A stretch of 64,000 nt of DNA from Bacteroidota bacterium (GCA_024642705.1 JAHEAQ010000007.1:14204-78203), one strand, 5' to 3'. Shown: positions 12,510 through 37,227, counted from the first letter of the stretch. Translations and numbers: made by a program. The notes: generated by a model not told the origin, from the sequence alone.

Positions 12510-12759
12510 GGTTTAACCCGCATTATTCATTAGACATTCTATTCCTACTAGAAATGACTGCAAAATATTCCGCCGCACTAAGTTTTGGTCATGCACCATA
12601 GTGGTAACTATGATTTAATCAGGCCATCCCTTCCGACAGGTTTTCTGTCGGTTCTCTCCCTATTTTAATTTCATTAAAATTGCTTTGCATCGTTTGTTCA
12701 TTTTTTGTTGTTATTTCAAGTCTCATTGCGAAGCCCCAATGCAATATGCGGGTTTAAGG
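12510..12759 (-). repeat. Copy A of a roughly 250-bp MITE-like or structured element with about 21-bp terminal inverted repeats (TTTAAACCCGCAT..TTGCATT), orientation opposite to copy B
   Basis: The reverse complement of 12510-12759 aligns at about 90% identity over the full length with 36980-37227. The termini ggtttaacccgcattattcatt and caatgcaatatgcgggtttaagg are inverted repeats of each other. Internal hairpins ccgacag-aaaacc-ctgtcgg and catagt-tacc-actatg are present. Confidence 0.8.
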
Positions 12760-12763
12760 ATAT

Positions 12764-12801
12764 TACAAAAAAAATAGACTTAAAATAATAAATTTTAAGT
12801 C
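12764..12801 (-). terminator. Rho-independent terminator of the giant T9SS adhesin gene
   Basis: Perfect 10-bp stem gacttaaaat / attttaagtc (12777-12801, loop aataa), followed on the minus strand by a T8 run (plus-strand A-run 12766-12774). Confidence 0.6.
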
Positions 12802-12842
12802 CATTCTTTAATATATATCTTAAAATATAAATTTTAAAAAAG

Positions 12843-15800
12843 CTATCTTAACAATGTTACATCCCCTTTGAAATTTAATTTGTCGCCATTAGCTATTTCT
12901 ACTTGAACTCCATAAATGTAAACACCTGCGGGAGCTAAGACATTGTTAATTCTGCCATCCCAACCTTCATCCAATGCGCATTGTTTGTCTTCACAACTAA
13001 ATACTTTTTCGCCCCATCTATTGAAAATATCAAACCTTGTTAATTCCCAATTGTCTAAATCTGCTTTTTTTAATGGTACTAACCTGAAAAAATCATTCAA
13101 CTCATCACCATTTGGTGTAAAAGCATTTGGCAATCCAAAGGTTGGAAATGCCCCAATTGCTTTATTTGTTGCCGACCAAATACATCCATTCTCATCCGTA
13201 ATGGTAACTCTATATATAGTAAAGACAGTATCGTTCTGTGTAGTTATAAAGGAAGATTCTTTCAATCCTTGTGAAACATCATTTATAAACCATTCATAAG
13301 TGGTATTTGGTCCAAAAGAAGGTTCTGGAACAACTATTAGTGTGATTTCGCCACCAGCAGGTACGGTATCATTAGGCTCTATGGCAAGCATCGCTGTTCT
13401 TATGTTATTATCAATTACAAGCGTATTTGACGTTCCATATTCACACCCATCAATCTTTGCTGTAACTTCAAGATTAGTAGAAACATCAGTGACTGCAATA
13501 GGTGATAGGCAATCCCCACAACTTAGAATATTTTTTGGTTTCCAATCAATATCCGTAATTGTCCCATTCGATTGTAAGGTTAATTGAACAGGAGATCCGG
13601 GGCAAACAAAAGGTTCGCTGAATCCAATTGCTAAGAATAATTCAGCAACTTTTATTTCTGCAGAAGCTGTGACTGGGCATCCATCTGCCATCATCGAAAC
13701 ACTGACGGTAGTAGTTGCACCTACAGTTGCAATAGGATTTGGACAATCGTCACAAGAAAGCTCGGGAGATCCTGGCTCCCATTTGATATCTTCTAACTTA
13801 CTTTCTGAAGTAAGCAATAATTGTACAGGTGTAAATGGGCACAAGACCGAAGTGTCAGAAACCATTATTTCTGCTAATGGGTTTTTTACAATAATTTCTC
13901 TTTCTATGGTATCCACGCAAGCACCATTTGTCGTAATTCTTCTAAATATTGCGGTATCTGCTGCAACAATAGCCAAATTCCAATTATCAAGATCTGATAT
14001 AATCCCAGGTGCAGGATCCCATTGGAATTCAATATTTGGGAAATGCTCATCATCATAACCTGGAGATACTATAGTAATTACTTCTCCAATGCAGTAATCA
14101 GGCTTATCTTGGATTATTTCAAACTTCATTGATGGTAGAGAATCCACTTGCATCCAAACTGAATCATGAGCTATGCATCCGTCATAATCCATTGTTACAT
14201 ATGCATATTGTGAAAATGTTGGATAATAAGTAACAATTGAGCTGTCCGGAACATTAACGATTTCTTGCGGTGCCCAAGATAAATTTAGACCCTCAGAAGT
14301 GCTATTGGTAGCAAAACTAATAGAATCTCCTAAACACATAAATACGGTATCTTGACCTATTATTTCTACTTTATTTGCTTGGACTACAAGATTGATTTCA
14401 ATTGAATCACTACAAATTTCTGTTGCGCTTGTTGCTACCAATTGGTAGGTAATATCTTCTGTGGCTGTTGCGATTGGATTTGCAATATTAGCATCGCTCA
14501 AATAATCTGATGGAGTCCATTCATAGGTAGTTAAAGGATCTCCAGGACCAGCTAATAATAATGGGTAACCTTCACAAATCGTGGTATCGGTAACCAGAAT
14601 TTCTGGGAAAAGATATGGATCAACCCTTAAAAATAAAGTGTCAGATGCAGCGCATCCATTGAGGGTAATATTAGCAACATATGGTATTAAATCCAAAGAA
14701 CTTATTGTCGGTTTAATCACAGTAAGATTGCTATTTGGGTTTTGCACGCCAATGTTTAGATTTTCCCAATTAATATTTGTATTTCCAACATTGTTTATTA
14801 TTTCAACGTTTATGCTATCGCCAAAGCAAAACATTAATTCATCGCTAGATGAAATAACAATTTCAGGATCTACAGGGATGATAGTTATGGTATCCACATC
14901 CATGCATTCAGCATTTGTAAATGGATCAATAGAACCAGTAACAATATAAGTTTGCTGAATTTGAGGATCTAATATTATTGGGTTATTAATATTCGAATCA
15001 CTTAAATTTGTAGCAGGAGTCCAGCTATAACTTGTGGCTCCTTCAGCAAAAAGTTCGAATGGAGTTCCTTTGCAAATATAAACCACATCCTCTCCACCTT
15101 GAGCAACAACTTCAATATCTTCTCTAATCTCAATAGTTATTGATGTGATGTCAACGACTTCGCATCCAAAATCATTTTGAAATAAAATTTCTATCGTTTC
15201 TGTGCCTTCTGAAATATTATCGGAAAGTACAGTAATCGGAAAAGTGAGTAAGGTTTGTCCTGGTTCAAAGGTTATCGTATCTGGAAGGTCTAATATATAA
15301 TCTACACCGTTAATTGCTGTTCCCCCTAATTGAGGCACAAATTGTAAAGGTTTTTCTTGTGGATTATCAATATTGATTACTATCAATTCCTGACCATCCG
15401 TGCATTTTTCCAAAAGGTAATCAAACCCAAAGGAAGTTGCCAATGAAATCTCAGGTACATTATTTCTTAATTCTGAAATAAAAACACCAGAGTCAAAAAT
15501 AAAATCATTTCTATCCGCAATTGCGAATTTTAATTTATAAGTGTTACAAGGGATAACTTGTGCCGAGGCAGTCAGACTTTTTTTAGAACCTAAATAATCA
15601 ACCACATAGCCATCGTACTCGCTGCTTAATCCACTTTGGTTGTTTCTAAAATATTCCCAGTTTGATTTGCTATTTACGCTATTGATTTCTATTGGAATGT
15701 TGGATTTAGGAATTAATGCAAGATTCTTTTTTCCATTTAATTCGGGAATTCCATCTGTAATTCCTGGACCTTCAATGAACAAAGCAAAAATATCATTGAA

Positions 15801-17090
15801 ATCATCAGATTCATATTCAGGATATTCTTCAGAACCAAATAAAAATTGAAAATTTAATTCATTTGCTTTGACAAAAGCTTCCACTTCAATAACGCATGCA
15901 TCATTTGACAAAAGATCTGATCCATAAAGTTGAGATAAAATATCTAAATCACTATCTCCGTCAGAAATGTGGGCAAATCCAGCTCCAACAGAAGTATTAG
16001 GCCCTAAAGCTAATTCTGCTTTTCCGGTTGTGATTAAAATACCTTTGTCAAGTCCTAAATCCGAATTATTCCCTTTACTAAATACTCCTACAGCTCCTTT
16101 ATCGCATGAAATTCCTGTAACTTTAATATCGACCAATGAGGATGAAAGATTATTAACAATACTTTTTTCATTAATAATTGAGTCTATTTGAATAGTTTCT
16201 GGCAATTCACATTTAACATTACTACAATTCCATGATGCCTTGAAGCCATCTAAATTTACGTTGTTATCTGTAATCATTCGAACAGTCAAACATTTTTCAC
16301 CATATATCGTATAACACACGCTTCCGTTACCGTTAATTCCGTTTCCTGCAATTTGATTAATGACGGGTGCATTAACATTTTCGCCATTATAGAAGATTAT
16401 TTTATCTCCAGTATTACCAATGCCCTGTTCAATGTTATAATATTCTATATTAAATTCAATGCATTGATTGTTTGACCCAGGGCATATTGTAAATGTATTA
16501 TCTTCATTTGATCCGTAATCACCATTGGGACCTCCAGTGTCATAAAGCACACCAGTACATTCCGTTGACCCATCGTTGCTTAATGTATATTCAATATCTT
16601 GTTCACTAATGCATACATTGAATTCTCCTTCAAAATTACTTCCTGAATAATTATCAATTCTAATATAATAAAGGTCATTAGGGGTCAGATTTGATACATC
16701 AAAGCTCAATGAAGTGGCTCCAAATTCGCCTTTTGCGCAAGTATTTAAAGCAAAAATATTATCTGGACAATATCCTCTATAAAGTCCTGCTTGAATATTA
16801 GTTAATGGATTTCCATTGCTGTTGTCACCTTCAATAGTTATGGTATAGTTAATTATTTTGGAATCTGCGATAAAACTGAACCAAACATCGCTAGAAGGTG
16901 AATCTTCGAAACACTCAGGAATATTATTGGTTCCTATATCAGACGCAGTTGCACCTATATTGGAAAACTTAATGTCCTGACAAAGAGGAGCAGTTCCAAG
17001 ATTTACTGTTCCTGCACAATCATCGTTAAAAACTTGAGATTGAGCAAGGTAAGAAAAACTTATTAATAGGATTGTTATTAGGTTCTTCAT
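12843..17090 (-). CDS. Giant secreted cell-surface protein with T9SS type-B C-terminal sorting domain (gliding-motility-associated CTD) and repeated Ig/PKD-like modules
   Basis: Signal peptide MKNLITILLISFSYLAQSQ. C-terminus GLPNAFTPNGDELNDFF...WDGRINNVLAPAGVYIYGVQV matches the type-B CTD consensus (PNAFTPNGDG.ND). Internal repeats of the YxWTPxxxLSDxNIxNP type. 1415 aa. Confidence 0.8.
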   Translation of the reverse strand: MKNLITILLISFSYLAQSQVFNDDCAGTVNLGTAPLCQDIKFSNIGATASDIGTNNIPECFEDSPSSDVWFSFIADSKIINYTITIEGDNSNGNPLTNIQAGLYRGYCPDNIFALNTCAKGEFGATSLSFDVSNLTPNDLYYIRIDNYSGSNFEGEFNVCISEQDIEYTLSNDGSTECTGVLYDTGGPNGDYGSNEDNTFTICPGSNNQCIEFNIEYYNIEQGIGNTGDKIIFYNGENVNAPVINQIAGNGINGNGSVCYTIYGEKCLTVRMITDNNVNLDGFKASWNCSNVKCELPETIQIDSIINEKSIVNNLSSSLVDIKVTGISCDKGAVGVFSKGNNSDLGLDKGILITTGKAELALGPNTSVGAGFAHISDGDSDLDILSQLYGSDLLSNDACVIEVEAFVKANELNFQFLFGSEEYPEYESDDFNDIFALFIEGPGITDGIPELNGKKNLALIPKSNIPIEINSVNSKSNWEYFRNNQSGLSSEYDGYVVDYLGSKKSLTASAQVIPCNTYKLKFAIADRNDFIFDSGVFISELRNNVPEISLATSFGFDYLLEKCTDGQELIVINIDNPQEKPLQFVPQLGGTAINGVDYILDLPDTITFEPGQTLLTFPITVLSDNISEGTETIEILFQNDFGCEVVDITSITIEIREDIEVVAQGGEDVVYICKGTPFELFAEGATSYSWTPATNLSDSNINNPIILDPQIQQTYIVTGSIDPFTNAECMDVDTITIIPVDPEIVISSSDELMFCFGDSINVEIINNVGNTNINWENLNIGVQNPNSNLTVIKPTISSLDLIPYVANITLNGCAASDTLFLRVDPYLFPEILVTDTTICEGYPLLLAGPGDPLTTYEWTPSDYLSDANIANPIATATEDITYQLVATSATEICSDSIEINLVVQANKVEIIGQDTVFMCLGDSISFATNSTSEGLNLSWAPQEIVNVPDSSIVTYYPTFSQYAYVTMDYDGCIAHDSVWMQVDSLPSMKFEIIQDKPDYCIGEVITIVSPGYDDEHFPNIEFQWDPAPGIISDLDNWNLAIVAADTAIFRRITTNGACVDTIEREIIVKNPLAEIMVSDTSVLCPFTPVQLLLTSESKLEDIKWEPGSPELSCDDCPNPIATVGATTTVSVSMMADGCPVTASAEIKVAELFLAIGFSEPFVCPGSPVQLTLQSNGTITDIDWKPKNILSCGDCLSPIAVTDVSTNLEVTAKIDGCEYGTSNTLVIDNNIRTAMLAIEPNDTVPAGGEITLIVVPEPSFGPNTTYEWFINDVSQGLKESSFITTQNDTVFTIYRVTITDENGCIWSATNKAIGAFPTFGLPNAFTPNGDELNDFFRLVPLKKADLDNWELTRFDIFNRWGEKVFSCEDKQCALDEGWDGRINNVLAPAGVYIYGVQVEIANGDKLNFKGDVTLLR

Positions 17091-17193
17091 ATATTTTGAA
17101 GCAATAATTTATTTATTTAATGTAATTATACAATGCATAACGTTTATGCCACTGCTTCCAAGTGACAAAATACAGAATTAATTTCAATTCTAA

Positions 17194-17586
17194 TTATTCT
17201 GGACATTTCTCTAAACTCTCCTTAACTTTTACAATTGTAGTTTCAGGCAATTTATTTTCCCAGGCGGTGTTTATATAATTGATCAAATTCGTTATATCAA
17301 CATCTGTAAGATTTGAGAATCCCGCCATTGGCATCATGAAATTTTTTCCATTTACTTGAATTTCATCTTCTAATCCATGCAAAATAATACACGGCACCTT
17401 TTCATAATTTGCGGCATAAAAATCACTTTTATTCAATGGAGGGTATAAGTTTTTCAAACCGTTCCCATCTTTTCCATGACAATTGAGGCAATAGGTAGTA
17501 TATATTCTTTCGCCTTGAGCATAAATATTGCCTTGGCAATAAATAAAAATAAAAGCAATAAAAATTAATACAATTTTACTTTTCAT
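17194..17586 (-). CDS. Class I c-type cytochrome (mono-heme)
   Basis: Signal peptide, single CxxCH (CLNCHGKDGNG), and a distal Met ligand region MMPMAGF. Confidence 0.75.
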   Translation of the reverse strand: MKSKIVLIFIAFIFIYCQGNIYAQGERIYTTYCLNCHGKDGNGLKNLYPPLNKSDFYAANYEKVPCIILHGLEDEIQVNGKNFMMPMAGFSNLTDVDITNLINYINTAWENKLPETTIVKVKESLEKCPE

Positions 17587-18181
17587 CTTCTGCTAATAGT
17601 TTTTTTATATCCTTAATAAATTCTGTTACTTCATCTTCATCTGTTCCAATACAAAATGATCGGATATGTCTATTTTTATCCACCAATAGTAAATATCCAG
17701 AATGATTAAAACCTCCGGGTGCTTCATCATCTTCTATTACGATACTGAAATAATCTGCAGCTATTTCGTGTAATTTATCCTTTTCGCCAGTTAAGAATTG
17801 CCATTTAGGAGCACTAACTTCAAGTTTTTCGGCATAGGACTTAAGCTTAGCAGGTATGTCTCTTTTAGGATCCATCGTATATGAAACTAAATTAACATTC
17901 TGATTTTGAAAAGTTTCGTAAATTCTTAGCATTTGTTTGGTTACAACAGGACAAATAGAAGGACAAGAGGTGAAAAAGAAATCTGCTACGTAAATGTTTC
18001 CTGCAAAATTTTCATTGGTTATTATAACGCTATCTTGATTGAAGAAAGAAAAATCACGAATAGCATGAGGCACTTCTAATCCATTAACTACTTCAGTTTC
18101 TCCCAAAATCGGAAGTGGCGCATTGTCTTCACAGGAGCTTAACAGAATCAAAATAAAAAGAAATAAAATATATCTATTCAT
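17576..18181 (-). CDS. SCO1/SenC family copper chaperone / thiol-disulfide oxidoreductase
   Basis: FFFTSCPSICPVV (CxxxC in a thioredoxin-like fold) and lipoprotein-like signal LLSSCEDN. Overlaps the downstream cytochrome c by 11 bp. Confidence 0.8.
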   Translation of the reverse strand: MNRYILFLFILILLSSCEDNAPLPILGETEVVNGLEVPHAIRDFSFFNQDSVIITNENFAGNIYVADFFFTSCPSICPVVTKQMLRIYETFQNQNVNLVSYTMDPKRDIPAKLKSYAEKLEVSAPKWQFLTGEKDKLHEIAADYFSIVIEDDEAPGGFNHSGYLLLVDKNRHIRSFCIGTDEDEVTEFIKDIKKLLAEDEK

Positions 18182-18569
18182 TTAAATATTTTTTGGATTC
18201 ATTAATGCTTATGAAAATTTTCTCTGCGACAAGGGTAATCTTATTTTTTTGGTCTTTATAAAATGCTGATAGCTCTGATTGGTCGGGTTCTTTGTAATTT
18301 GCCATCCAAAGCATCATTTCTTCTTCAGCTTCATTCAAATTAACAATCAGTTCAGAAATTTTTAAACTATCAGGGTTTTGTACCCTCATAGTATCAAGAC
18401 TTGTTCTGTATTTTATAATGTTTCCAATTTCAGCCATAGATTTATCATGTATCTCCATTACTTCTTTTCTTGCCATTTCCAACTCTGATACCTTCTCTTT
18501 ACAAGCTGTAAAGCCAATCAGAAGGAGCATAAAAAAAATAGTTTTAACAACAAATATTTTCATTTCCAT
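18174..18569 (-). CDS. Hypothetical small lipoprotein (first gene of the lipoprotein–SCO1–cytochrome c operon)
   Basis: Lipobox LLIGFTAC, charged helical body. 8-bp overlap with the SCO1 start. Confidence 0.45.
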   Translation of the reverse strand: MEMKIFVVKTIFFMLLLIGFTACKEKVSELEMARKEVMEIHDKSMAEIGNIIKYRTSLDTMRVQNPDSLKISELIVNLNEAEEEMMLWMANYKEPDQSELSAFYKDQKNKITLVAEKIFISINESKKYLNE

Positions 18570-18619
18570 TCGATTTCAAACTGCTAAAATATAAACTATA
18601 TTTATTATTAAGCTGTTAT

Positions 18620-20068
18620 ATGAACTTAAATAATCTAGAAATGGTGTCAAAAGCAATCGTATGGTTTCGCTCGGACCTTAGGCTGCATGATAATGAAGCA
18701 ATTCTGCAAGCATCGAAGCTTTTCGATAGCCTTATATTCGTATATGTATTCGATGAAAGAGTTTTTGAAGGAAAAACAAAATTTGGTTTTCGTAAAACGG
18801 ATAAATTTAGGGCTCAATTTATAATCGACAGTGTTGCAGATCTTAGAAGAAATTTAAAGAAAAAAGGATCCGAATTAATTGTGAGATATGGCAAACCAGA
18901 AGAAATATTGTTCGAAATTTGTCAAAAGACAAAATCTTCTAGAATTTTTTGCAATAGAGAAAGAACTTTTGAAGAAGTAAAAGTTCAGGATGCACTTGAA
19001 TCAAAATTATGGAGCATTGGACGTGAAATCCAATTCACCAGAGGAAAAATGTTATATTATACTTCAGATCTCCCATTTCCAATATCACAAGCGCCAGATA
19101 CTTTTATCCATTTCAAAAAAGAGGTGGAGAAAATAATCAAAATTAGAGTTCCACTAGTTTCTGAAGAAATTGATTTTAAATATTTACCAATCGATATGGA
19201 AATAGGATCAATTCCAACCCTTCAAGATTTGGGCTTTTCAACTGAAGAATGTAATTTCCAAAAAGTACAAGAAGGAGGTGAAACTTTTGCTTTGAATCAA
19301 TTGAAATATTTTCTTTGGGATTCGGATGGCATAAGCAATTATAAAAATACTAAATGTGAAATGGTAGGTAGAAATTATTCATCTAAACTTTCAGCTTATT
19401 TATCACAAGGTTGCATTTCTCCCAAAAAAATAGCAAATGAAGTATTCAAATATGAAAATTCCAGAAAAAAGAATGATTCTACAAAGGGTTTGATCACAGA
19501 ATTATTATGGAGAGATTTTTTTAGGCTTTTGGCAAAAAAGCATGGAAGCAATTTTTTTAATTTTAATGGAATACTGAATGATTCAAAAGTTATTTCAAGT
19601 AACAATTTAAATCTTTTCGAAAAATGGGCAAATGGCCTAACGGGTATACCATTCATTGATGCAAATATGAGAGAATTGAATTCGACTGGATTTATGTCAA
19701 ATACAGGAAGGCAAGTTGTAGCAAATTTTTTGGTAAACGAACTTAAATTAAATTGGTTATTGGGAGCAGAATATTTTGAATCCAAATTAATAGATTATGA
19801 CCCATGTAGTAATTATGGAAATTGGAATTATGCTGCCGGATTGGGGAACAACACTAAATATGAAAAGAGTATTAATGTGTTGAATCAAGCCAAAAAATAT
19901 GATCCAAATGGAGATTATGTGAGAAAATGGATTCCAGAATTAAACAAAATTCCAGGAGGATTAATTCACTGTCCGTCAGAAATTTCTGTGGTTGAATTAA
20001 ATGATTATGGAATTAGCGATATGAATTTATATCCAAATTCAATAATTGACATAGGTAAATGGAATTAA
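18620..20068 (+). CDS. Cryptochrome DASH / deoxyribodipyrimidine photolyase family protein
   Basis: IVWFRSDLRLHDNEAL N-terminal photolyase alpha/beta domain; FAD-binding region with WRDFF, NWNYAAGLG and YDPNGDYVRKWIPEL motifs. About 480 aa, typical of Cry-DASH. Confidence 0.85.
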   Translation: MNLNNLEMVSKAIVWFRSDLRLHDNEAILQASKLFDSLIFVYVFDERVFEGKTKFGFRKTDKFRAQFIIDSVADLRRNLKKKGSELIVRYGKPEEILFEICQKTKSSRIFCNRERTFEEVKVQDALESKLWSIGREIQFTRGKMLYYTSDLPFPISQAPDTFIHFKKEVEKIIKIRVPLVSEEIDFKYLPIDMEIGSIPTLQDLGFSTEECNFQKVQEGGETFALNQLKYFLWDSDGISNYKNTKCEMVGRNYSSKLSAYLSQGCISPKKIANEVFKYENSRKKNDSTKGLITELLWRDFFRLLAKKHGSNFFNFNGILNDSKVISSNNLNLFEKWANGLTGIPFIDANMRELNSTGFMSNTGRQVVANFLVNELKLNWLLGAEYFESKLIDYDPCSNYGNWNYAAGLGNNTKYEKSINVLNQAKKYDPNGDYVRKWIPELNKIPGGLIHCPSEISVVELNDYGISDMNLYPNSIIDIGKWN

Positions 20069-20305
20069 GTTATTATTTCTAATAGAGACCATTATTTTAT
20101 TTTAGGCCGATCTTATTATGGCTAATTTTAAATCAACTTACTAGATTCAAATTGCTCTGATACTTTCATTTGTAGTAGGATTAAGGCCATTGTAAGGATT
20201 GCATGAAAATATTTCAGAAAAGATTCGAGCACAGAACTGGCATTGCAATTAGATTGCTAATTGATTTTCAAATTTGATGGATAGATTTTCTTGTGAATAA
20301 TTGGA

Positions 20306-20989
20306 TTATGGATGAGCTTTTTGGCGAAAAATTTTGAAAATTTGGTGGAAAAAGAAATTATTAGTGGACGGAAGTCGGTAAGGAGGAAGAATTTTGAAAC
20401 AATCTCCGAGGTTAGATGAACGAGCATTTAAATATCCTTGTAATTTTGCTGTTTCTCCCTTGAAAATATGGCTATACATCCAATTGCTTGTCATAGCTCT
20501 TTTTTCTTTCATAATCTCATTAACCCAAATTCCAGAATAATGAGCTTGCTCCAAACCTTTATTTAATTTTTCAACCAATTCATTCATCTCTATTTCATTT
20601 TCTATCAACTTTCGGCCAAATCGGCTTGCTACCAATGTGCCAGATCTCTTGTGTGTAAAATTAAAATGTTTAACAAAACTAACTTGCAAGTTAGCCATAG
20701 CTTGTGAAAAAATATAAGTGGATTCTGGAATCTCTTCGTCTAGAATTGTATTTTTTTGGTTCGATAAATAATGAGAACGAAAATCATCTCTTTTTTTCAA
20801 TTTAACAAGTATTTGAAATTCATTGTCAATAAAATTGTAGGCTATAATTTCAGATATGGGTAATAAGTATTTCTCCATCTTCAATTTAAAAAAGTTTTGC
20901 ATTGAAAGAGAAGAGAACATCGGGTTTCTAGCAACTGAATGGTTACTTATTAAATAAATACTTTCCTCAAATAAATGTATCGTTTTCAT
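20306..20989 (-). CDS. Hypothetical protein, paralog of 30319..31065; weak IS200/RAYT-like (Y1-transposase fold) resemblance with a degenerate HuH motif
   Basis: Shares conserved blocks with 30319..31065: ISNxxVARNPxF, EIxAYxFxxNxFQILhxh, and a C-terminal FxxLPP. The HuH position reads EFQ instead of HxH. Confidence 0.5.
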   Translation of the reverse strand: MKTIHLFEESIYLISNHSVARNPMFSSLSMQNFFKLKMEKYLLPISEIIAYNFIDNEFQILVKLKKRDDFRSHYLSNQKNTILDEEIPESTYIFSQAMANLQVSFVKHFNFTHKRSGTLVASRFGRKLIENEIEMNELVEKLNKGLEQAHYSGIWVNEIMKEKRAMTSNWMYSHIFKGETAKLQGYLNARSSNLGDCFKILPPYRLPSTNNFFFHQIFKIFRQKAHP

Positions 20990-21143
20990 ACTAATCCAAT
21001 TTTTTAGTTAAATCACTTCTATTGTATTAGTGTCGAAAAATCTAATTCTGTTACCTTTTTTTAAATTTTTTTTTAAAAAATATGCAAATGCCTTGTTTTT
21101 GATAAATTAATTAGAGCCTTTATTTAAATCTGAAACAGTTTTT

Positions 21144-22286: not shown

Positions 22287-22307
22287 TTAATTGATGTTTA
22301 AAAAAAT

Positions 22308-23738: not shown

Positions 23739-23742
23739 TGGA

Positions 23743-24399: not shown

Positions 24400-24684
24400 T
24401 TGAGTTGTTTTTTTTTGAAAAAAGTAAGTTCATGAGTGCAAAAAAATGGTTGTTTTGAGATGGAAATATAAACATTTAAAAAATATTGTCTGAAATAATT
24501 GGTAATCATTAGTGATTATTTGAGAATTTTTTTTTCTTTAAATACAGAAAAAAGTGGAATTTATGTTTGTTAATACTACTTTTATCTTTATTAAGTGCTA
24601 ATTACAATAACTTTGTTCTTAATTAATAATTATTCTTTTATTTTTGAGTAAAGATCATAATATTTTAAGTTCTTATCAACCTAT

Positions 24685-25899: not shown

Positions 25900-25901
25900 A
25901 C

Positions 25902-27314: not shown

Positions 27315-27455
27315 ATTTTGAAATATTTAATTAAATAGAAATTTAATATAATTTATTTTCGGTTAAATTCAGACAATTGAAAAAGAATTTACACTTAAAC
27401 TGGCCCTTTATAGTTGTTTGTTTAATTTAGCGGCGAAATTGAGAAAAATTTATTA

Positions 27456-28634: not shown

Positions 28635-29743
28635 GTCATAAATTGAATACAATTGAGGAGGCAATTCAAGAAATCAAACAAGGAAAAATAATAATTGTTG
28701 TGGATGACGAGGATAGAGAAAATGAAGGTGATTTTATATGTGCTGCCGAAATAGTAACGCCTGAGATGATCAATTTCATGGCTACCCATGGAAGAGGATT
28801 GATTTGCACTCCAATTGATGAAGACAGAGCCGACGAACTAGGACTTAAAATGATGGTGGGAGATAATACAGCATTGCATGAAACTGCATTTACTGTTTCT
28901 ATTGATTTAATTGGACAGGGTTGCACCACAGGAATATCTGCTTATGATAGAGCCACTGGGATTAGGGCAATTGTGAATCCAGCAACCAAGGCGACAGATT
29001 TTGCTAGGCCAGGGCATATTTTTCCTTTAAGAGCGAAAAAAGGAGGTGTTTTAAGACGGACTGGTCATACTGAAGCTGCTATTGACTTGGCAAAGCTAGC
29101 TGGTTACGCTCCTGCTGGCGTTCTAGTCGAGATATTAAATGCTGATGGAACAATGGCCAGATTACCTCAATTAATGGAGATAGCTCAATTGCATAATTTA
29201 AAAATAATTGCAATCAAAGATCTTGTTGAATATAGAATGCGTAATGAACGTATTATCACAAAAGAAATTGAGTTGGATGTGCCTTCAAAATTGGGTAATT
29301 TCAAAGTTGCTGTGTATTCACAGATAACGACTGGAGATAGGCATTTGGCTATTTATAAAGGGGATATAAAAGAAAATGAACCAGTGCTTGTAAGAGTTCA
29401 TTCTCAAACTGAAACAGGGGATATTCTAGGTACTTTATTTGGAGAATATGGCACGCAATTGCAGGCTAGTTTGAAATTGATTGAGAAAGAGGGTGTCGGC
29501 GTTTTGTTGTATATTAGGCATGGTGAGAAAGGAGATTCACTCATTTCAAAATTGAAGGAATTGGATAATAATCCTACAAATGACCCTCTAAAAAAGGTAG
29601 AACAGAGAGATTTTGGTGTTGGAGCTCAGATTTTGAGAGATTTGGATGTAAAATTGATTAAGTTGATTACAAATAATCCAAAAAAGAGGATTGGTTTGAT
29701 TGGATATGGTTTGGAAATAGTAGAAAATGTTCCTTTGGATTAA
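28631..29743 (+). CDS. ribBA: 3,4-dihydroxy-2-butanone-4-phosphate synthase fused to a GTP-cyclohydrolase-II-like C-terminal domain
   Basis: RibB core [20 protein letters not shown]...[10 protein letters not shown]. The C-terminal half is GCHII-like but lacks the CxxGHxxECxC zinc-binding cysteines. ATGA overlap with the upstream GT4 gene. Confidence 0.85.
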
Positions 29744-30318
29744 TTTTTAAATGTTGACTATTTTTAAAATAGAAATCATTAAAGTAATTAATGAATATAT
29801 ACAAGAAAAAGATGCAGCTAAAAAGGGTAGATGTTAAAAATGTGATTGTAAAACATCCGTTTTGAGCTATCTCAAAATTATGTATCAATTTGTATATTCT
29901 GCGTCACGGAGAGATTTCACATTATAAAATGAATAACTTTTCCTTCTCAAAATTACTAAGAGAATTTCTTTTTTTAGAGATTGAGACTTACAATTTAATG
30001 ATCATTGAGATTTTGAGGTTCTACAATCGAAAATAACTTAAATGTTATTTCTAAGCATATTCAAATCAAAATTGGGCTATAAAATATAGGATTTAAAGAA
30101 TCAATAAAATCTGATTTTACGATTTGCAAATTTTATTACAATTGATAAGAAACTAAAATTTTTTAGATTTAAAAAATTGGAATTTATAATTAAGATAAAG
30201 AAGTGGATAGGAATTTAAAAGATGGGACTTGAACAATTAATTAAGACATAGGAATTGTGTTTTTTTTGGATAAAAAAGTTCAAAAATTGAAAAGACAACA
30301 TTTTTTTAGGCATTTTGA

Positions 30319-31065
30319 TTACCAAGGAGGAAAATATCCATTGGAATGCAGGAATTTCAGTTGAAAAAGAAGATAATTCTGCTTTCTAATGTTTGCCGGC
30401 GGCAAGAAGTTGAAACAACCTCGCAAGTCTATTCTGAAGTAAGGCCAGAAATTTGAAAATATTGTATGGAAATTTCTAAATCCTTTTTCCCCATAGAAAA
30501 TTAAACTACTACATTCACCTTCATTATTTCTAAAGTTGCATTTTTTTTCAGCTTGCCAATCCGATTCGAAGCAAAACAAAGGTTCCTGATTATTTAATTT
30601 ATTAATCCAATTTTTTAAATCTACTTCAGATTCTAATAGAATTTTTAAATACCTCCTTCCAAAAAGGCTACCACATCTTTTGTATTTGTAATTAAAATAT
30701 TTAGCATAACTATTTAGCATGTTAGAAACTTCCTGAGAAAAAATTTCGTAAGTTTCAGGATACACACTATGGACAATTCCATTTTGAAAATCATTCATTC
30801 GTTGCTGATATTTAACATTTTTTGATTCTATCATTTTAGTTTCAAAAAATTTCTCAATTATATTTCTGCTATTTACGCGTATTAATATTTGAAATTGATT
30901 GTGCAAAAATGAATAGGCATAGATTTCGCAAATTCCAGAAAGATATTTTTCAATGTTTGATTGAAAAAATTCTACATCTGATTGTTCAAAAAAAATTGGA
31001 TTTCGAGCAACACCAAAATTTGAAATTACGTAAACATGTCCTCCACATACATGATCGATTTTCAT
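30319..31065 (-). CDS. Hypothetical protein, paralog of 20306..20989; degenerate IS200/RAYT-like fold (HuH replaced by QFQ)
   Basis: GHVYVISNFGVARNPIFF aligns to RAYT/IS200 N-terminal strands; AYSFLHNQFQILIRV occupies the HuH position with Q-F-Q. Confidence 0.5.
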   Translation of the reverse strand: MKIDHVCGGHVYVISNFGVARNPIFFEQSDVEFFQSNIEKYLSGICEIYAYSFLHNQFQILIRVNSRNIIEKFFETKMIESKNVKYQQRMNDFQNGIVHSVYPETYEIFSQEVSNMLNSYAKYFNYKYKRCGSLFGRRYLKILLESEVDLKNWINKLNNQEPLFCFESDWQAEKKCNFRNNEGECSSLIFYGEKGFRNFHTIFSNFWPYFRIDLRGCFNFLPPANIRKQNYLLFQLKFLHSNGYFPPW

Positions 31066-31225
31066 AATAATTTTTATTTATCTATAACCCAAATAATAAA
31101 CTTATTTAGGAGGCAAAAAAAAGGTCACCTATGTATTAGTGTTTTTTATGTTGAATTCGTTACCTATTTTTTGATTTTTTTTAGAATTTTATTTTTTTCT
31201 ATTTTGAACTAAATACATATTCAGC

Positions 31226-31266
31226 AAAAAAAAAAAGGAAACTGCAAAATGCAATTTCCTTTTTTG
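31226..31266. terminator. Bidirectional rho-independent terminator after the NfeD–flotillin operon
   Basis: aaaaaaaaaaa-ggaaactgcaaaatgcaatttcc-tttttt: an imperfect hairpin flanked by an A-run and a T-run. Confidence 0.5.
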
Positions 31267-31289
31267 ATGGTAATATCTTGTAAACAAGC

Positions 31290-32711
31290 CTAAGCTTCTT
31301 TTTTAATTTGAGCAGCGGGTTTTAACTGGATAGGTTCCTTTTCTTTTTTACTTTTTATTAAAGCTTCAGGAAGGCTCATTCCTGATTGTTCAAGAAAATC
31401 ATTCAATTGCGGAAGCATTCCGTAAAGTCCTTGAACAAAATTACCCATGCCATCTCCTGAACCATTATCATAAACAACAATTTTGTCAATTTTCAAATCC
31501 TTTATTGCTTCTACTTGTATTTTAGCTATGTCTGCTAATTTATCTACCATTAAATATCCAATCGCACTTTGCGCATCTCCACCAGCTGCATCAACTAATT
31601 TTTTGAATCCTTCAGCCTGACTAGATAATAATTCTTGAATACCTTCTGCTTGAGCTCTATATTTTGCTAAAACAGCAGTTGCTTCGCCATTTGCAATTTC
31701 AATATTTGTTTCAGCTTGTGCTTTAGCTTTAATAACAGCTTTTTCTTTTTCGATATCTGCCTCAACAACTTCATCAGCCTGCTTTCTAGCTTTTTCCATA
31801 TCAAATCGCGCCATTTCTGACTCCTTTTCAGCAAGATATGCCTCTTGAAGTGCCTTCGCAGATGCTACTTTTCGTGCAGCTGTTGCCTTTCTTTCTGACT
31901 CAGCAATTTGAATATCCCTTTCTGCATCTGAAATTGCCACTTTTATTGCTGCCTCATTTTTTCCTGCCTTGGCTTGCCCTTCAGCATCCGCTTCTCCAAT
32001 TTCAGCTTTTGAATTTGCGTCAGAAACCTTTATTCTCTGCTCCCTTTGGGCTTCAGCTTCACCTATAGATCCAGTTTTTAATTCTTGAGCTACTTTTACT
32101 TTTGCATCATTAATGGCCTTGGCAGCAGCTTCCTTACCTAATGCTTGTATATATCCTGATTCATCATGGATGTCAGTAACATTCACGTTGATCAATTCTA
32201 GACCTATTTTATTTAACTCATCCCCAACATGAGCATAAACAGACTCTACAAATTTATCTCTATCAGAATTTAATTCTTCAATTCTCATATTTGCTATTAC
32301 GAGCCTCATCTGACCCATTATAATATCCTGAGACAATGCTGCAATACTATTTCTTTCTAAACCAAGAAGTCGTTCTGCAGCTGAAACCATCAAATTTGGC
32401 TTGTTGCTTATACCAACTGTAAATTGTGCTGGGACAGAAACTCTAATATTTTGATTGGATAATGCGTCCTTCAAGTTGACATCTATGGATAATGGAGTCA
32501 AGTCCATATAGCGGTAATCTTGAATAACTGGCCACACAAAAGCCGCACCACCTGCATAACATTTAGCGCTTGCTCCACCACCTGTTTTTCCGTAAACAAC
32601 TAGTATTTTATCACTGGGACACCTTTTATACCTGCTAATTATGAAAATTAGAAATAAAAAGATAAGGCCAACTATGGCCCCAAAAACAATTAGTAAATTA
32701 TTCTCCATCAT
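31290..32711 (-). CDS. Flotillin / SPFH (band-7) family protein
   Basis: N-terminal TM, SPFH domain, and a long Ala/Glu-rich coiled coil (EAAAKAINDAKVKVAQELKTGSIGEAEAQREQRIK...) typical of flotillin (YqiK/FloA-like). Confidence 0.85.
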   Translation of the reverse strand: MMENNLLIVFGAIVGLIFLFLIFIISRYKRCPSDKILVVYGKTGGGASAKCYAGGAAFVWPVIQDYRYMDLTPLSIDVNLKDALSNQNIRVSVPAQFTVGISNKPNLMVSAAERLLGLERNSIAALSQDIIMGQMRLVIANMRIEELNSDRDKFVESVYAHVGDELNKIGLELINVNVTDIHDESGYIQALGKEAAAKAINDAKVKVAQELKTGSIGEAEAQREQRIKVSDANSKAEIGEADAEGQAKAGKNEAAIKVAISDAERDIQIAESERKATAARKVASAKALQEAYLAEKESEMARFDMEKARKQADEVVEADIEKEKAVIKAKAQAETNIEIANGEATAVLAKYRAQAEGIQELLSSQAEGFKKLVDAAGGDAQSAIGYLMVDKLADIAKIQVEAIKDLKIDKIVVYDNGSGDGMGNFVQGLYGMLPQLNDFLEQSGMSLPEALIKSKKEKEPIQLKPAAQIKKEA

Positions 32712-32728
32712 ATTGGTTTTTTTAATTT

Positions 32729-33262
32729 TTATTTATAAAGCGTTACTTTGGCAATCTCTTCAGCTACTTGATGAACAAGAATTTCAGACCCAGATGGTAT
32801 TTCAACTTCATCCAAAGAAACAGCCTTTAGTTCTCTATTCACTCCATTAATTTCAATATTCACGATTCCAGTTCCTTTTTCAGGTATTTTTAAATATACT
32901 TTTCCAGTTTTTCCTTCAGCTTCGTGAAATTCCCAATTCACATTTGATTGCATTCTTAGAAAAAATCTAAGTACCCAAGCTAAAATTAATACTGTTCCTA
33001 TTCCTACTCCTATTGAAACAAGTAAGGTTAAAATTGGATTTACTGCTGCATTTAACAAAATGTAAGCAACCCATGAGAAAAATGTAAGAAAAGTTAAAAT
33101 AGATTTCACAATTCCTAAGCCTCCAGCATCTATGTCTATGTTTCCTACATCAATATCCATTTCCATGTCTATTCCACCAATCAAAGAAAGTAACAATAAT
33201 AATGTTAGCAACCCTCCTGAAAAAATAGCCACGTAATAACTTATTTGGATTAACAATTCCAT
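32729..33262 (-). CDS. NfeD-like (YqiJ-like) membrane protein, flotillin partner
   Basis: Three or four TM helices followed by a C-terminal OB-fold-like beta domain (GKVYLKIPEKGTGIVNIEINGV...). 17 bp upstream of flotillin. Confidence 0.6.
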   Translation of the reverse strand: MELLIQISYYVAIFSGGLLTLLLLLSLIGGIDMEMDIDVGNIDIDAGGLGIVKSILTFLTFFSWVAYILLNAAVNPILTLLVSIGVGIGTVLILAWVLRFFLRMQSNVNWEFHEAEGKTGKVYLKIPEKGTGIVNIEINGVNRELKAVSLDEVEIPSGSEILVHQVAEEIAKVTLYK

Positions 33263-33519
33263 AATGAAATATTAAGTACGATTAGATTATTACACTAATA
33301 AATGAAAATTATTTTAATCTGGTTCCAAATTAAATTTAAGTTAGTCGAATATTTTCAAAATACCATAGAAATTTAATAAGAATCGTTTACTAACTTTTAT
33401 CCTACCTATTTTTAAATAAAAAACATTTTCAAAAAACGTGTTTTGGTTTTGCATTATTTCTTTTAAAGAAAGGAATTCTGTATCTTTTTTTTTTATTTAA
33501 AAATTGTAAAACAAAGACT

Positions 33520-36500
33520 ATGAATACAAAAACAATTCTATTATTAGTTGGATTTTTATTTCTGAGTTATACTGCTTTCCCGCAAAGAAGAGCTCAAGTA
33601 ATGCAGGATGATTCAACAAATAATAAGAAAGATTCAAAAGAACTTAATCTTTCTGGACTAAAAATGCGAAACATCACGCCTGGTTATTTTTCAGGAAGGA
33701 TTTCTGATATTGCAATTCATCCCAAAAATGGCAATGTTTGGTATGTTACTGCTGGTTCTGGGGGAGTATGGAAAACTGAAAATGCTGGAACTACCTTTAC
33801 CTCTATTTTCGATGGAGAAAAATCTTATTCCATTGGTTGCATTACCATAGATCCGAATAACAATCATACGGTATGGGTTGGCACTGGGGAAAATGTTGGT
33901 GGTCGACATGTTGCATTTGGTGACGGGGTATATAAAAGTGAAGATGATGGGAAATCTTGGAAAAATATGGGTCTTGAAAAATCTGAGCATATTTCAAAAA
34001 TATTAGTCCATCCGGGAAATTCTGATGTTATTTATGTGGCTGCTCAAGGACCATTATGGACAAAAGGAGGAGAAAGAGGCTTTTATAAATCCTCAGATGG
34101 CGGAAAAACTTGGAAAAGAACACTCGGAAATGAAGAATGGACTGGTGTGACAGACATCGTTTTAGATCCTACGAATCCTATGGTGATTTATGCAGCTACT
34201 TGGGATAGGCACCGGACAATAGCAGCATATATGGGTGGAGGCCCTGGGTCAGGGATTCACAGGAGCCTTGATGGAGGTGAAACATGGGAAAAATTGACTT
34301 CTGGTATTCCTGGTTCCAATCTTGGAAAAATTGGATTAGCAATTAACCCTTTCAACCATGAAATGGTATATGCGGCTATAGAATTGGATAGAAAAAAAGG
34401 TGGCTTATACATGTCCGAAAATATGGGGAAATCATGGAAAAAACAATCCGATGCTGTATCTGGGGGAACTGGTCCACATTATTATCAAGAACTATATGCT
34501 TCGCCACATCAAGAAGGTAAATTATACTTGATGGATGTGAGAATTCAAGTATCTGATAATCATGGTAAATCATTCAGAAATATGACTGAGAATGACAAAC
34601 ATTCTGATAATCATGCAATTGCATTCAAAGAAAATGAACCTGATTATTTATTGGTAGGAACAGACGCTGGCTTATACCAAAGTTATGACAACGCAGAAAA
34701 TTGGTCTTTTTTTGAAAATTTACCTTTAACGCAATATTATAAAGTTGCAGTAGACGATGCAGAACCTTTTTATTGGGTATATGGTGGAACCCAAGATAAT
34801 GGTTCGCATGGTGGACCTTCAAGAACAGATACGGATCATGGGGTTCGAAATTCTGACTGGATAAAAACCCTTGGAGCTGATGGCCATCAATCCGCAACAG
34901 AACCTGGAAATCCAAATATTATTTATGCGGAAACGCAGCAGGGTGGTATGCACAGAATTGATAGAATAACTGGAGAACAAACACCAATTCAACCTGAATC
35001 AAAACCGGGTGAAAAATTTGAAAGATTCAATTGGGACGCTCCTATAGTCGTTAGTCCTCATAATCCTCAAAGGTTATATTTTGCTTCCTATAGGGTTTGG
35101 AAATCAGATGATAGAGGGGATAGTTGGACTGCAATTTCAGGAGATTTAACAAAAGACCAAGAAAGAATGTCACTACCTATTATGGGAAGGCAGCAAAGTT
35201 GGGATAACGCTTGGGATGTGAACGCAATGAGTGATTACAATACCATTTCTTCCTTAGCAGAATCTCCTTTAAAAGCAGGGTTGATTTTCGCAGGAACAGA
35301 TGATGGTATTTTTCAAATGACAGAAAATGATGGAAAATCCTGGACAAAAAAAGAATTGAGTTCTATTCAAGGTATTGCTCCAACAGCTTTTATTAATAAT
35401 ATTTACCCAGATTTATTTGACGAAAATACAGTTTATTTTGCCGCTGATAATCATAAATATGGAGATTTTAAGCCCTATTTATTTAAAAGTACGGACAAAG
35501 GCAAAACTTGGAATTCTATGGTGGGTAATCTGCCTGATAAATTATTGGTCTGGAGAATGGTTCAAGATCATGTAAATCCAAAATTGATGTTTATTGCAAC
35601 AGAATTTGGAATTTATTTTACAATTGATGGAGGAACAAAATGGACTAAAATTAAAGCTGGCGTTCCAAATATTTCATTTAGAGATATCACTATTCAAAGA
35701 AGAGAGAATGATTTAGTAGCTGCATCTTTTGGCAGAGGATTTTTTATCCTTGATGACTATACGCCACTAAGAACCATAAGCGATGAAATTTTAGCTAAAG
35801 AAACGCATCTCTTTGAAATCAAAGATGCAAATTGGTATTCTCCAAAAAATGTAGAGGGGGATCTTGGGACAACTCGATATTCTGGTCAAAATCCTGAGGA
35901 AGGTGCTACTTTTACCTATTATGTTAAAGATGATTATACTTCCTCCGCAAGCGAAAGAAAAAAAGCAGAAAAAAAGTTAAATAAAGATGGCAAAGACATT
36001 CCTTTTCCAGGTTGGGATGCCTTGGAAAGTGAAGCACGAGAAGAAGGTGTTATGTTGGTATTTACAATTAAAGATGCAGAAGGTGAAATCGTTAATATTC
36101 TTGAACAGAAACCTTCAAAAGGTATAAATCGAATGAATTGGAATATGCGATATATGTCGAAAAATGGAGTGCAAATTCCACAAGGAAGCCAAGGAGGTCA
36201 GGGAGGCAGAGGATTTAGACGTGGAGGCGGCGGATTTTTAGCCCAACCTGGAGTTTATTCCGTAAATATTGCAAAAAAACAAAATGGTGAAATAGTTGAT
36301 TTAGGTGAAACCAGAACATTTAATTTAGTTCCTTTGAGAGAAGGTGCTTTGAAAGGTATGGATTCCCAAGATGTAATTGCATTCAGAAAAGATTTTGAAA
36401 AATTCCAACAAGACATTACAGCAACTTCAACCATATTGAACAATTCTGGGAGAAAGTTGGAAGCATTAAAAATTGCTTCTGGAAGAGTGGATAGTGATTA

Positions 36501-36831
36501 TGCAGCCATCACAAAGTTAATTTATGATGCCAATTTAGCTTTAAAGGATATTGAAAAGAAGTTAAATGGAGATGCAATAAAAGATGAGATTGGTGAAAGA
36601 TATGCTCCAACACCAAGGTCTTCGATGTTTGCTGGTTATAGAGCTTTAAATTCAACCTATGGACCAACAAAAAATCAGATTGAAATAATAAATGGAGCTA
36701 AGGGTCAATTAGAAGGTATTAAAAGAGAAATCACTTCTTTTAATGATAATTTGGACGCAATTGAAAAGGCCTTAATTGCTGCAGGTGCTCCGTGGATAGA
36801 AGGACAAGGATTGATAAGTACTAAATCATAG
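33520..36831 (+). CDS. Sortilin/VPS10-type BNR-repeat beta-propeller protein (secreted, glycoside-hydrolase-like)
   Basis: Signal peptide; repeated BNR/Asp-box-like SxDxGxTW motifs (SEDDGKSW, SSDGGKTW, SLDGGETW, STDKGKTW, TIDGGTKW). 1103 aa. Confidence 0.8.
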   Translation: MNTKTILLLVGFLFLSYTAFPQRRAQVMQDDSTNNKKDSKELNLSGLKMRNITPGYFSGRISDIAIHPKNGNVWYVTAGSGGVWKTENAGTTFTSIFDGEKSYSIGCITIDPNNNHTVWVGTGENVGGRHVAFGDGVYKSEDDGKSWKNMGLEKSEHISKILVHPGNSDVIYVAAQGPLWTKGGERGFYKSSDGGKTWKRTLGNEEWTGVTDIVLDPTNPMVIYAATWDRHRTIAAYMGGGPGSGIHRSLDGGETWEKLTSGIPGSNLGKIGLAINPFNHEMVYAAIELDRKKGGLYMSENMGKSWKKQSDAVSGGTGPHYYQELYASPHQEGKLYLMDVRIQVSDNHGKSFRNMTENDKHSDNHAIAFKENEPDYLLVGTDAGLYQSYDNAENWSFFENLPLTQYYKVAVDDAEPFYWVYGGTQDNGSHGGPSRTDTDHGVRNSDWIKTLGADGHQSATEPGNPNIIYAETQQGGMHRIDRITGEQTPIQPESKPGEKFERFNWDAPIVVSPHNPQRLYFASYRVWKSDDRGDSWTAISGDLTKDQERMSLPIMGRQQSWDNAWDVNAMSDYNTISSLAESPLKAGLIFAGTDDGIFQMTENDGKSWTKKELSSIQGIAPTAFINNIYPDLFDENTVYFAADNHKYGDFKPYLFKSTDKGKTWNSMVGNLPDKLLVWRMVQDHVNPKLMFIATEFGIYFTIDGGTKWTKIKAGVPNISFRDITIQRRENDLVAASFGRGFFILDDYTPLRTISDEILAKETHLFEIKDANWYSPKNVEGDLGTTRYSGQNPEEGATFTYYVKDDYTSSASERKKAEKKLNKDGKDIPFPGWDALESEAREEGVMLVFTIKDAEGEIVNILEQKPSKGINRMNWNMRYMSKNGVQIPQGSQGGQGGRGFRRGGGGFLAQPGVYSVNIAKKQNGEIVDLGETRTFNLVPLREGALKGMDSQDVIAFRKDFEKFQQDITATSTILNNSGRKLEALKIASGRVDSDYAAITKLIYDANLALKDIEKKLNGDAIKDEIGERYAPTPRSSMFAGYRALNSTYGPTKNQIEIINGAKGQLEGIKREITSFNDNLDAIEKALIAAGAPWIEGQGLISTKS

Positions 36832-36864
36832 CTAATAATCCTGGTTATTCTTTTTAGATTCCTA

Positions 36865-36907
36865 TTCTTAAGTTAATCATTCAACTTAAGAATGGGAATT
36901 TTTTTTT
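36865..36907 (+). terminator. Rho-independent terminator after the VPS10-like gene
   Basis: Perfect 10-bp stem ttcttaagtt / aacttaagaa (loop aatcattc) followed by tgggaa and a T9 run. Confidence 0.5.
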
Positions 36908-36979
36908 AAGGTGCTTTCTTTTGGGCTAAACCATTCAGCTAAAAATTGAAAAAATGCCAATTTCTTGAACCACCTGTTT

Positions 36980-37227
36980 TTTAAACCCTCATTTTGCATT
37001 GGGGCTTCGCAATGAAACTTGAAATGACCATAAAAAATGAACAAACGATACAAAGCAATTTTAATGAAATTAAAATAGGCAGAGAACCGATAGAAAACCT
37101 GTCGAAAGGGATGGCCTGACTAAATCATAGTTACCACTATGGTGCATGACTAAAACTTATTGCAGCGGTATATTTTGTATTCATTTCCAGTAGGAATAGA
37201 ATGTCTAATGCAAAATGCGGGTTTAAA
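36980..37227 (+). repeat. Copy B of the roughly 250-bp MITE-like or structured element with 21-bp terminal inverted repeats
   Basis: Left end tttaaaccctcattttgcatt and right end aatgcaaaatgcgggtttaaa are inverted repeats with one mismatch. About 90% identical to the reverse complement of copy A. Internal hairpins are retained, including a G·U-compatible change ccgatag/ctgtcga versus ccgacag/ctgtcgg. Confidence 0.8.

Follow-up and report, generated by a model that had tools for sequence, protein, structure and literature searches.

The question raised by this locus is what the two copies of a non-coding repeat of about 250 nucleotides (nt) represent, which lie in opposite orientations on either side of a 24-kb segment in a stretch of 64,000 nt from a Bacteroidota bacterium (GCA_024642705.1, JAHEAQ010000007.1:14204-78203; the whole stretch is called the window below). 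The source organism is a Saprospiraceae bacterium close to Portibacter. The original prediction, which was based on the sequence alone, described the pair as a transposable element of the miniature inverted-repeat type (MITE), mentioned a structured non-coding RNA (ncRNA) as an alternative, and suggested that the two copies might drive the inversion of the segment between them. The explanation we favor, with a probability of roughly 0.6, is that they belong to a new MITE family, that they result from two separate insertions, and that this family is mobilized in trans and has a single-stranded fold that is under selection.

A repeat search of the window gave a single inverted-repeat pair, at 12512-12757 (minus strand, copy A) and 36981-37226 (plus strand, copy B), with arms of 246 nt that are 91% complementary and a spacer of 24,223 nt. 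In an ungapped comparison, copies A and B differ at 21 of the 246 positions (91.5% identity), in agreement with the identity of about 90% and the distance of 24.2 kb initially reported; in an alignment including the flanks, the similarity ends sharply outside these two intervals. The longest run of perfect identity between the copies is 30 nt. The consensus of the terminal inverted repeats (TIRs), TTAAACCCGCATTTTGCATT, when searched with up to three mismatches, matches the window four times, exactly at the four ends (0.03 matches expected by chance). The TIRs had been described as near-perfect at both copies; those of copy A are less perfect than those of copy B, with 1 and 3 mismatches to the consensus. 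The 22-nt core of the internal hairpin, AATCATAGTTACCACTATGGTG, occurs twice in the window, once per copy (0.00 expected), so that the hairpin is indeed retained in both, and the C-to-T change previously pointed out (position 111, pairing with 121) does preserve a G.U pair. One other change is fully compensatory (G-C to A-U at 70/198), and the remaining differences are located at positions that are unpaired in the two-copy consensus fold.

Members of the same family were identified outside the window. A genome collection, searched with a 20-mer from the internal hairpin, gave matches in two Saprospiraceae metagenome-assembled genomes (MAGs), in which the element is ~176 nt long and shares its ends and hairpin with the window copies. 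A degenerate pattern of the right end yielded 15 metagenome contigs carrying copies, and BLAST one copy on the complete plasmid pSD15 of Microscilla sp. PRE1. The latter (5927-6100 in locus L023, 55487-55660 in NC_002806.1) is unannotated, has ATAAT on both sides and is the sole family copy on this 101-kb plasmid. A first scan of metagenomes with a Saprospiraceae hairpin 19-mer gave no match, BLAST searches of the PLSDB plasmids and of a phage collection with several members and the bare terminal repeat returned only the Microscilla copy and chance matches, and three scans of viral contigs gave no family copy. Taken together, the copies, which show pairwise identities of 56-98%, indicate that the family is spread in Bacteroidota, at least in Saprospiraceae and Microscillaceae. 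The total unit measures 175-177 nt in most of the canonical copies, and the core 165-167 nt in 12 of the 13 (189 nt in that of locus L009, which carries an insertion). A covariance model, R1, was built from these 13 canonical copies; it scores 158-199 bits on 12 of them and 110 bits on the L009 copy, and the Microscilla copy, which is outside the training set, reaches 106 bits. MITEs are a known kind of element, and this family appears to be undescribed: it is not in Rfam, and the literature searched contained no paper with its conserved terminal sequences.

Part of the case for mobility comes from the termini and their flanks. The mobile core, CCCG...CGGG, is bounded by TIRs of ~20 bp (CCCGnATTATGCATTAG and CTAATGCATAATGCGGG), and the helices P1a and P1b are 96-99% paired across the family. 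Identical 5-mers flank the core in 13 of the 17 copies (TTAAA in eight, TTTAA in four, and ATAAT in the Microscilla copy), and this identity occurs only in the exact register: 12 copies at (0,0), plus that of locus L005, as compared with 0-2 in the other registers. The TTAAA and TTTAA classes are associated from left to right (Fisher p = 0.007), and copy B is the only one of the 17 with complementary flanking pentamers. The TTAA previously attributed to the termini has to be reassigned, the outermost TTAAA or TTTAA being a duplicated target site that lies outside the inverted repeat. Since the pentamer class changes between near-identical copies (L005 and L006, 94% identity; L016 and L017, 98%), it reflects the site of insertion rather than descent. 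The pentamer TTTAA is the reverse complement of TTAAA, giving a target consensus TTWAA; a single asymmetric AT-rich target was therefore used in both orientations, which fits a staggered 5-bp cut. The copies at L016, L017, and L018, which are 98% alike and come from one metagenome, have different flanks. Throughout the family, the copies are found in unrelated intergenic contexts and in mixed orientation, nine being co-oriented with the upstream gene and seven not. The element is thus a short non-coding unit with TIRs, target-site duplications (TSDs) of a fixed 5-bp length, copies at multiple unrelated sites, and presence/absence variation, as will be seen from the empty orthologous sites; the classification as a MITE put forward in the original prediction is supported by these features and by the lack of coding capacity.

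The orthologous sites were analyzed in Portibacter relatives. At the right junction, the order of the genes in GCA_020357715.1 and P. marinus is the same as in the window (Band_7, a gene of 177 amino acids, Sortilin/BNR, DUF4212, SSF symporter, and acetyl-CoA synthetase), and the intergenic gaps, of 126 nt and 260 nt, respectively, contain no copy of the element. At the left junction, three relatives show the same order as the window (epimerase, TonB-type receptor, convergent CHU_C adhesin, cytochrome c, SCO1, photolyase, and GH3) and lack a copy at this site; the distance between the two stop codons is 10 nt in P. marinus. Both window copies are thus lineage-specific insertions, the corresponding sites being empty in relatives that share the gene order. 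In the case of Portibacter lacus, a Logan contig (DRR240129, locus L028) ends at 10610, 93 nt past the stop of the TonB-type receptor gene, and the NCBI assembly has a 656-nt gap after this gene, with no R1 match.

The structure of the element was also analyzed. With RNAalifold, the 13 canonical copies fold into one long irregular hairpin, consisting of helices P1-P6 in the canonical ~176-nt unit, with 55 pairs, both partners having changed in 21 of them. The proportion of paired cells is 93.8%, as compared with 32-45% when the partners are slid by 1-3 columns, and none of 500 shuffles matched any of five measures of the fold. P1, the outer helix, has a conserved sequence, and the compensatory changes are located in helices P2-P6. 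Over the whole fold, G.U pairs occupy 57 cells and A.C only 7; the numbers are 40 and 5 for the inner helices, on which the search pattern placed no constraint. The energy of the consensus fold is -44.4 kcal/mol on the forward strand and -11.0 kcal/mol on its reverse complement, and single-sequence folding favors the forward strand in all 13 copies, by 9-27 kcal/mol. Since the fold tolerates G.U but not A.C, it has been selected in the single-stranded form of one strand; this asymmetry and that of the energies are not explained by a double-stranded palindrome or cruciform. Conserved blocks are also present in the unpaired parts, namely CUUCGUAAUGAG (5' side) and CGGAAUAGAUUUU (3' side). These comparisons indicate that the fold of one strand is kept by compensatory substitutions among copies as low as 56% identical. 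Strand-specific covariation across such divergent copies is unusual for a MITE. A seventh small hairpin in the 3' "unpaired" segment (ACAC...GTGT, AACT...AGTT), which is plausible in some copies, was rejected as a general feature.

Covariation on one strand (21 of the 55 pairs, 0 of the 500 shuffles) is the generic mark of a structured RNA, and to this extent the earlier alternative of a structured RNA with a long closing helix stands; the element is neither 6S RNA nor a member of an Rfam family. Rfam 15 at its gathering thresholds gave no match in the window or in 14 related loci, relaxing E up to 5-10 produced only chance matches (RAGATH-6, for example, with 18 bits for a threshold of 170), and ARAGORN found no tRNA or tmRNA. 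Unrelated to the element, a match to the DUF805b RNA motif was obtained below threshold in locus L014 at 970-1002 (30.3 bits, gathering threshold 35.6, E 1e-5).

In the window copies, the outer scaffold (P1-P3) has been preserved together with the apical hairpin, but the interior is ~70 nt longer. On these grounds we assign them to a long subfamily of the MITE family. Both share this expansion and have since diverged by 8.5%, which means that the long form itself has been duplicated at least once. Their parts are as follows (E, expectation value; TSDs are written in the orientation of the element).

12517..12752, minus strand: mobile core of copy A, long subfamily, CCCG...CGGG, 236 nt; R1 64.5 bits, E ~5e-13.
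12753..12757, minus strand: 5' TSD of copy A, TTAAA.
12512..12516, minus strand: 3' TSD of copy A, TTAAA, the same as the 5' one.
12594..12615, minus strand: apical hairpin P6 of copy A, conserved.
12618..12700, minus strand: interior expansion of copy A, the same as in copy B.
36986..37221, plus strand: mobile core of copy B, long subfamily, CCCT...CGGG, 236 nt; R1 69.7 bits, E ~3.5e-14.
36981..36985, plus strand: 5' flanking pentamer of copy B, TTAAA.
37222..37226, plus strand: 3' flanking pentamer of copy B, TTTAA, one base off the 5' one.
37123..37144, plus strand: apical hairpin P6 of copy B (AATCATAGTTACCACTATGGTG), conserved; Saprospiraceae variant common to the MAG loci L002 and L003.
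37038..37120, plus strand: interior expansion of copy B, subfamily-specific, ~70 nt beyond the ~176-nt canonical unit, with small hairpins of its own.

The coordinates of the neighboring genes agree with the description of both copies as intergenic and close to a gene stop or a terminator hairpin. Copy A begins 15 nt past the stop of the gene at 9980-12496 and comes after the terminator hairpin of the gene at 12843-17090, and copy B lies ~75 nt past a terminator, so that both are located downstream of terminators. The two hairpins concerned, of which that near copy A probably belongs to a type IX secretion system (T9SS) adhesin gene, are outside the element.

12769..12809, minus strand: hairpin and adjoining T-run, lying 9 nt upstream of copy A and probably terminating the T9SS adhesin gene.
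36856..36901, plus strand: intrinsic terminator upstream of copy B, belonging to the Sortilin/BNR gene.

In the explanation we propose, the element would be mobilized in trans, the gene for the DDE-type transposase being located elsewhere; this enzyme would recognize the terminal repeats and cut an AT-rich target with a 5-bp stagger. The fold may help to keep a copy mobilizable or tolerated, a point about which our confidence is modest; it could act in the form of a hairpin in the transcript, or of a single-stranded DNA (ssDNA) fold-back joining the ends of a very short element. The length, the ends, and the strand-specific fold have been kept through extensive sequence turnover in at least two Bacteroidota classes, which argues for selection beyond the terminal repeats. 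In view of the mixed contexts and orientations and the lack of a recurrent neighbor, this selection most likely bears on the element lineage itself, although this is said with lower confidence; the mixed orientation, and the position of the window copies behind terminators, make an RNA role for the host, relying on read-through, seem less likely than selection within the element lineage.

Several points weigh against this explanation. No transposase or other recurrent neighbor emerged from an all-against-all BLASTP comparison of 91 flanking open reading frames (ORFs) or an NCBIfam scan of 67 ORFs, and neither the 29 loci nor pSD15 nor PLSDB yielded an autonomous element whose termini match. 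No promoter reading into the element was evident, and the orientation of the copies relative to their neighboring genes is mixed, with the nine-to-seven split given above. We know of no DDE transposon that needs a single-stranded fold, and the helices lack typical RNA tetraloops, so that the fold is compatible with either RNA or ssDNA. The duplications are imperfect in 4 of the 17 copies. The relatives with empty sites share just 68-81% protein identity with the source organism, and the sites are not base-exact. As regards sampling, the copies from the genome collection are limited to two MAGs and were obtained with a 20-mer that is lineage-specific, and since the metagenome copies were picked by a right-end pattern, the invariance of the right end is partly a matter of ascertainment.

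A stronger form of the same explanation is that the fold is a working part, i.e., that the family is an ancient lineage of tiny transposons whose single-stranded six-helix hairpin is required for cut-and-paste or copy-out mobilization. We regard this as possible but doubtful. The hairpin might then serve as an RNA or DNA cofactor synapsing the ends of a unit that is too short to bend as a duplex, or as an RNA recruiting or regulating the partner transposase. This would amount to a structure-dependent step in the class of transposition with 5-bp TSDs, for which no such step is known to us. MITEs are usually seen as short-lived, decaying deletion products of insertion sequences (ISs), and in searches for RNA motifs they are commonly set aside as repeats. 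Should the fold serve mobility, this would point to a structural requirement, so far unrecognized, for very short elements to transpose; should it serve the host or function as an RNA, the family would be a portable RNA module spread by transposition.

Another possibility is that the element is a mobile folded ssDNA handled by a structure-recognizing recombinase, with the fold as its substrate, either of the HUH type (IS200/IS605, REPINs) or a tyrosine recombinase (integron attC sites), which we consider unlikely. attC sites, REPINs, and IS200/IS605 ends act as the fold of one DNA strand, their structure being conserved above their sequence; this is an established hallmark of attC sites and IS200/IS605 ends, and in the present element too one strand folds and the structure outlasts the sequence. 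The AAC...GTT beside the core is, in addition, superficially like the R''/R' boxes of attC. Such systems, however, leave no TSD and have a fixed polarity with respect to the target, whereas here the pentamer is duplicated in both orientations (TTAAA 8, TTTAA 4, ATAAT 1) and the TIRs are long, 20-bp repeats being atypical of IS200/IS605. An IS200/IS605-type palindrome-associated transposable element or a REPIN was rejected in view of these TIRs and TSDs; so was an integron attC site, because the AAC/GTT is lost in the Microscilla copy, the window copies are inverted 24 kb apart, and the window contains no integrase and no cassette array.

It is quite improbable that the copies are those of a multi-copy structured ncRNA gene immobile at the DNA level; its closing helix would then be a matter of RNA structure alone, and the pentamers either part of the gene or an AT-rich coincidence. 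The strong strand-specific covariation, the conserved unpaired blocks, and the length of 175-177 nt kept in most copies are what such a gene would lead one to expect. The pentamers, however, are direct repeats and not complementary, as pairing would require, and their class switches between copies that are 94-98% identical; the flanks are unrelated, with no recurrent neighbor, the syntenic sites in relatives are empty, and there is no Rfam family. Moreover, as the unit starts at its 5' end with the first base of the helix, no upstream promoter can be carried along with it. An RNA-mediated retro-element resembling a short interspersed element (SINE), the transcript of which would be recognized through its fold by a reverse transcriptase and copied into AT-rich nicks, would account for the selection of a one-strand fold and for the TTAAA-like target, but it is hardly credible, since the TSD length is fixed at 5 bp, the TIRs are precise, the copies have neither an A-tail nor an internal promoter, no reverse transcriptase recurs near them, and we know of no SINE-like system of this kind in bacteria.

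The last alternative, that the pair and the segment it brackets form a functional unit, is just as hard to sustain, whether this unit is taken to be a composite transposon or an invertible segment switched by recombination.

12758..36980, no strand: bracketed 24.2-kb block; ordinary chromosomal genes, in the ancestral orientation judging from synteny.

The inverted orientation of the copies and their 91.5% identity over 246 nt speak for this idea. The element-free relatives, however, share the gene order across both junctions and within the block, on account of which a composite transposon or invertible segment was rejected: both junctions and the block interior are ancestral, and nothing has thus been inverted or imported in the arrangement seen in the window. 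The block carries genes for the CHU_C adhesin, cytochrome c, SCO1, photolyase, GH3, DUF389, and an ABC ATPase, together with glycosyltransferases, a sulfatase, ribBA, Band_7, and Sortilin/BNR; these include housekeeping genes, and neither a transposase nor cargo nor any compositional island or break was detected in it. GC skew in the window gives no sign of inversion and tracks gene orientation. The target duplications are uninformative about inversion, as the 5' pentamer is the same in both copies. Copy A has an intact duplication of its own. With no identical run longer than 30 nt, copies A and B are also a weak substrate for homologous recombination. The gene order therefore indicates that the 24-kb interval is chromosome lying between two separate insertions, and the suggestion that it might be a mobile or inverted unit has been removed.

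As to known elements of comparable design, the bacterial MITEs that form hairpins include Correia in Neisseria, ERIC/IRU in enterobacteria, and RUP/BOX in pneumococci. The present element resembles them in being short, non-coding, and intergenic, with TIRs, a short TSD, many dispersed copies, and a transcript able to fold as a long hairpin. It differs from them in phylum and in its TSD, which is a 5-bp TTWAA where theirs is TA, and its sequence appears to be unrelated, judging from the lack of a match in Rfam and the literature. It also differs in having an irregular multi-helix hairpin with covariation and G.U tolerance, in copies that are 56-75% identical and occur in two bacterial classes; we know of no covarying, G.U-tolerant fold documented for the Correia, ERIC, RUP, or BOX elements.

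Among transposon families, IS1380-family ends begin with CC, those of piggyBac, a eukaryotic relative of IS1380, begin with CCC, piggyBac duplicating TTAA, and Tn3-family ends begin with GGGG. With its CCCG ends and TTWAA duplication, the present element may be akin to IS1380 and piggyBac, which is a possible lead; it differs from piggyBac in that its duplication is 5 bp long, as compared with the 4-bp TTAA, and from the IS1380 family in having no transposase gene. Its repeats of ~20 bp beginning with CCCG do not match the GGGG start of Tn3, which is one reason why a Tn3-derived inverted-repeat miniature element (TIME) was rejected. The other is their length, Tn3-family ends being 38-bp repeats (PMC2887853). 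What TIMEs do share with the element is a 5-bp AT-rich TSD (PMC2887853) and a non-autonomous design. TSDs of this kind, 5 bp long and AT-rich, are made by ISEcp1, of the IS1380 family, and by Tn3-like elements (PMC2887853), and in this respect IS1380/ISEcp1 resembles the present element. The known 5-bp AT-rich duplicators, namely the IS1380/ISEcp1 and Tn3 families, could be candidate sources of the enzyme, with the reservation that Tn3-type ends do not fit. In Cardinium, a MITE derived from ISCca4 has been described (PMC9769881). Besides a group II intron, plasmid pSD15 carries IS256, IS200/IS605, IS1182, and IS21 transposases, and no second copy of the termini.

The only ORF in the window copies is a 41-codon frame starting with TTG (36994-37119 on the plus strand, 12619-12744 on the minus strand), which is open in both. 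Its eight nucleotide differences lead to six amino-acid changes, there is no such frame in the canonical copies, and it is probably not coding. The right end of the family contains an invariant block reading outward, TTTG-N19-TAGATTTT, which resembles the -33/-7 promoter of Bacteroidota; the window copies (37160-37205 and 12533-12578) have TAGAATGT instead. The right end of copy B faces the DUF4212-SSF-acetyl-CoA synthetase operon, 108 nt away. An outward promoter at the right end is no more than a possibility, since in the window this pattern does not mark the intergenic regions and TAGAATGT takes its place in both copies.

Model R1 and the termini (patterns CCYGNATTATGYAWTAG and GGAATAGANNNTCTANTGNNNNNNGCGGG) provide a handle for the annotation of the repeats of this family in Bacteroidota genomes and MAGs. 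Several assemblies and contigs end within a copy, which is consistent with assemblies breaking at the element. One of them, a contig from an independent assembly of the same organism (Logan SRR12825370, locus L001), stops 57 nt inside copy A, at about position 12568 of the window; as the identity runs between copies A and B do not exceed 30 nt, there may be further, more similar copies elsewhere in the genome.

Some of the individual copies have particular features. Locus L009 contains a pair of paralogous genes that share their C-terminus (...KIKG[S/L]N stop), each followed by TTTAA and the element (2226-2424 and 5466-5526): a GC-rich insertion of 19 nt is present on the 3' side of the first copy, and the second is a 61-nt derivative in which only the terminal repeats and the duplication are left. 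The 1.55-kb metagenome contig L008 is bounded by two directly oriented copies (1-184 and 1411-1554), with a single ORF between them, each copy having an extra GC-rich hairpin at the P2/P3 junction. A degenerate copy at 9767-9919 in L013 (26 bits) has a good right end and TTAAA flank, and at its left end it overlaps the beginning of an ATPase-like ORF on the minus strand. In the window itself, a perfect hairpin at 4569-4615 (TTGGCATTAGAACT-actag-AAGTTCTAATGCCAA) has a stem like that of P1b (ATGCATTAGAAC...TTCTAATGCAT) and scores 18 bits with R1 (E 0.06); it could be a relic mini-derivative like that of L009, or merely a terminator between two minus-strand genes.

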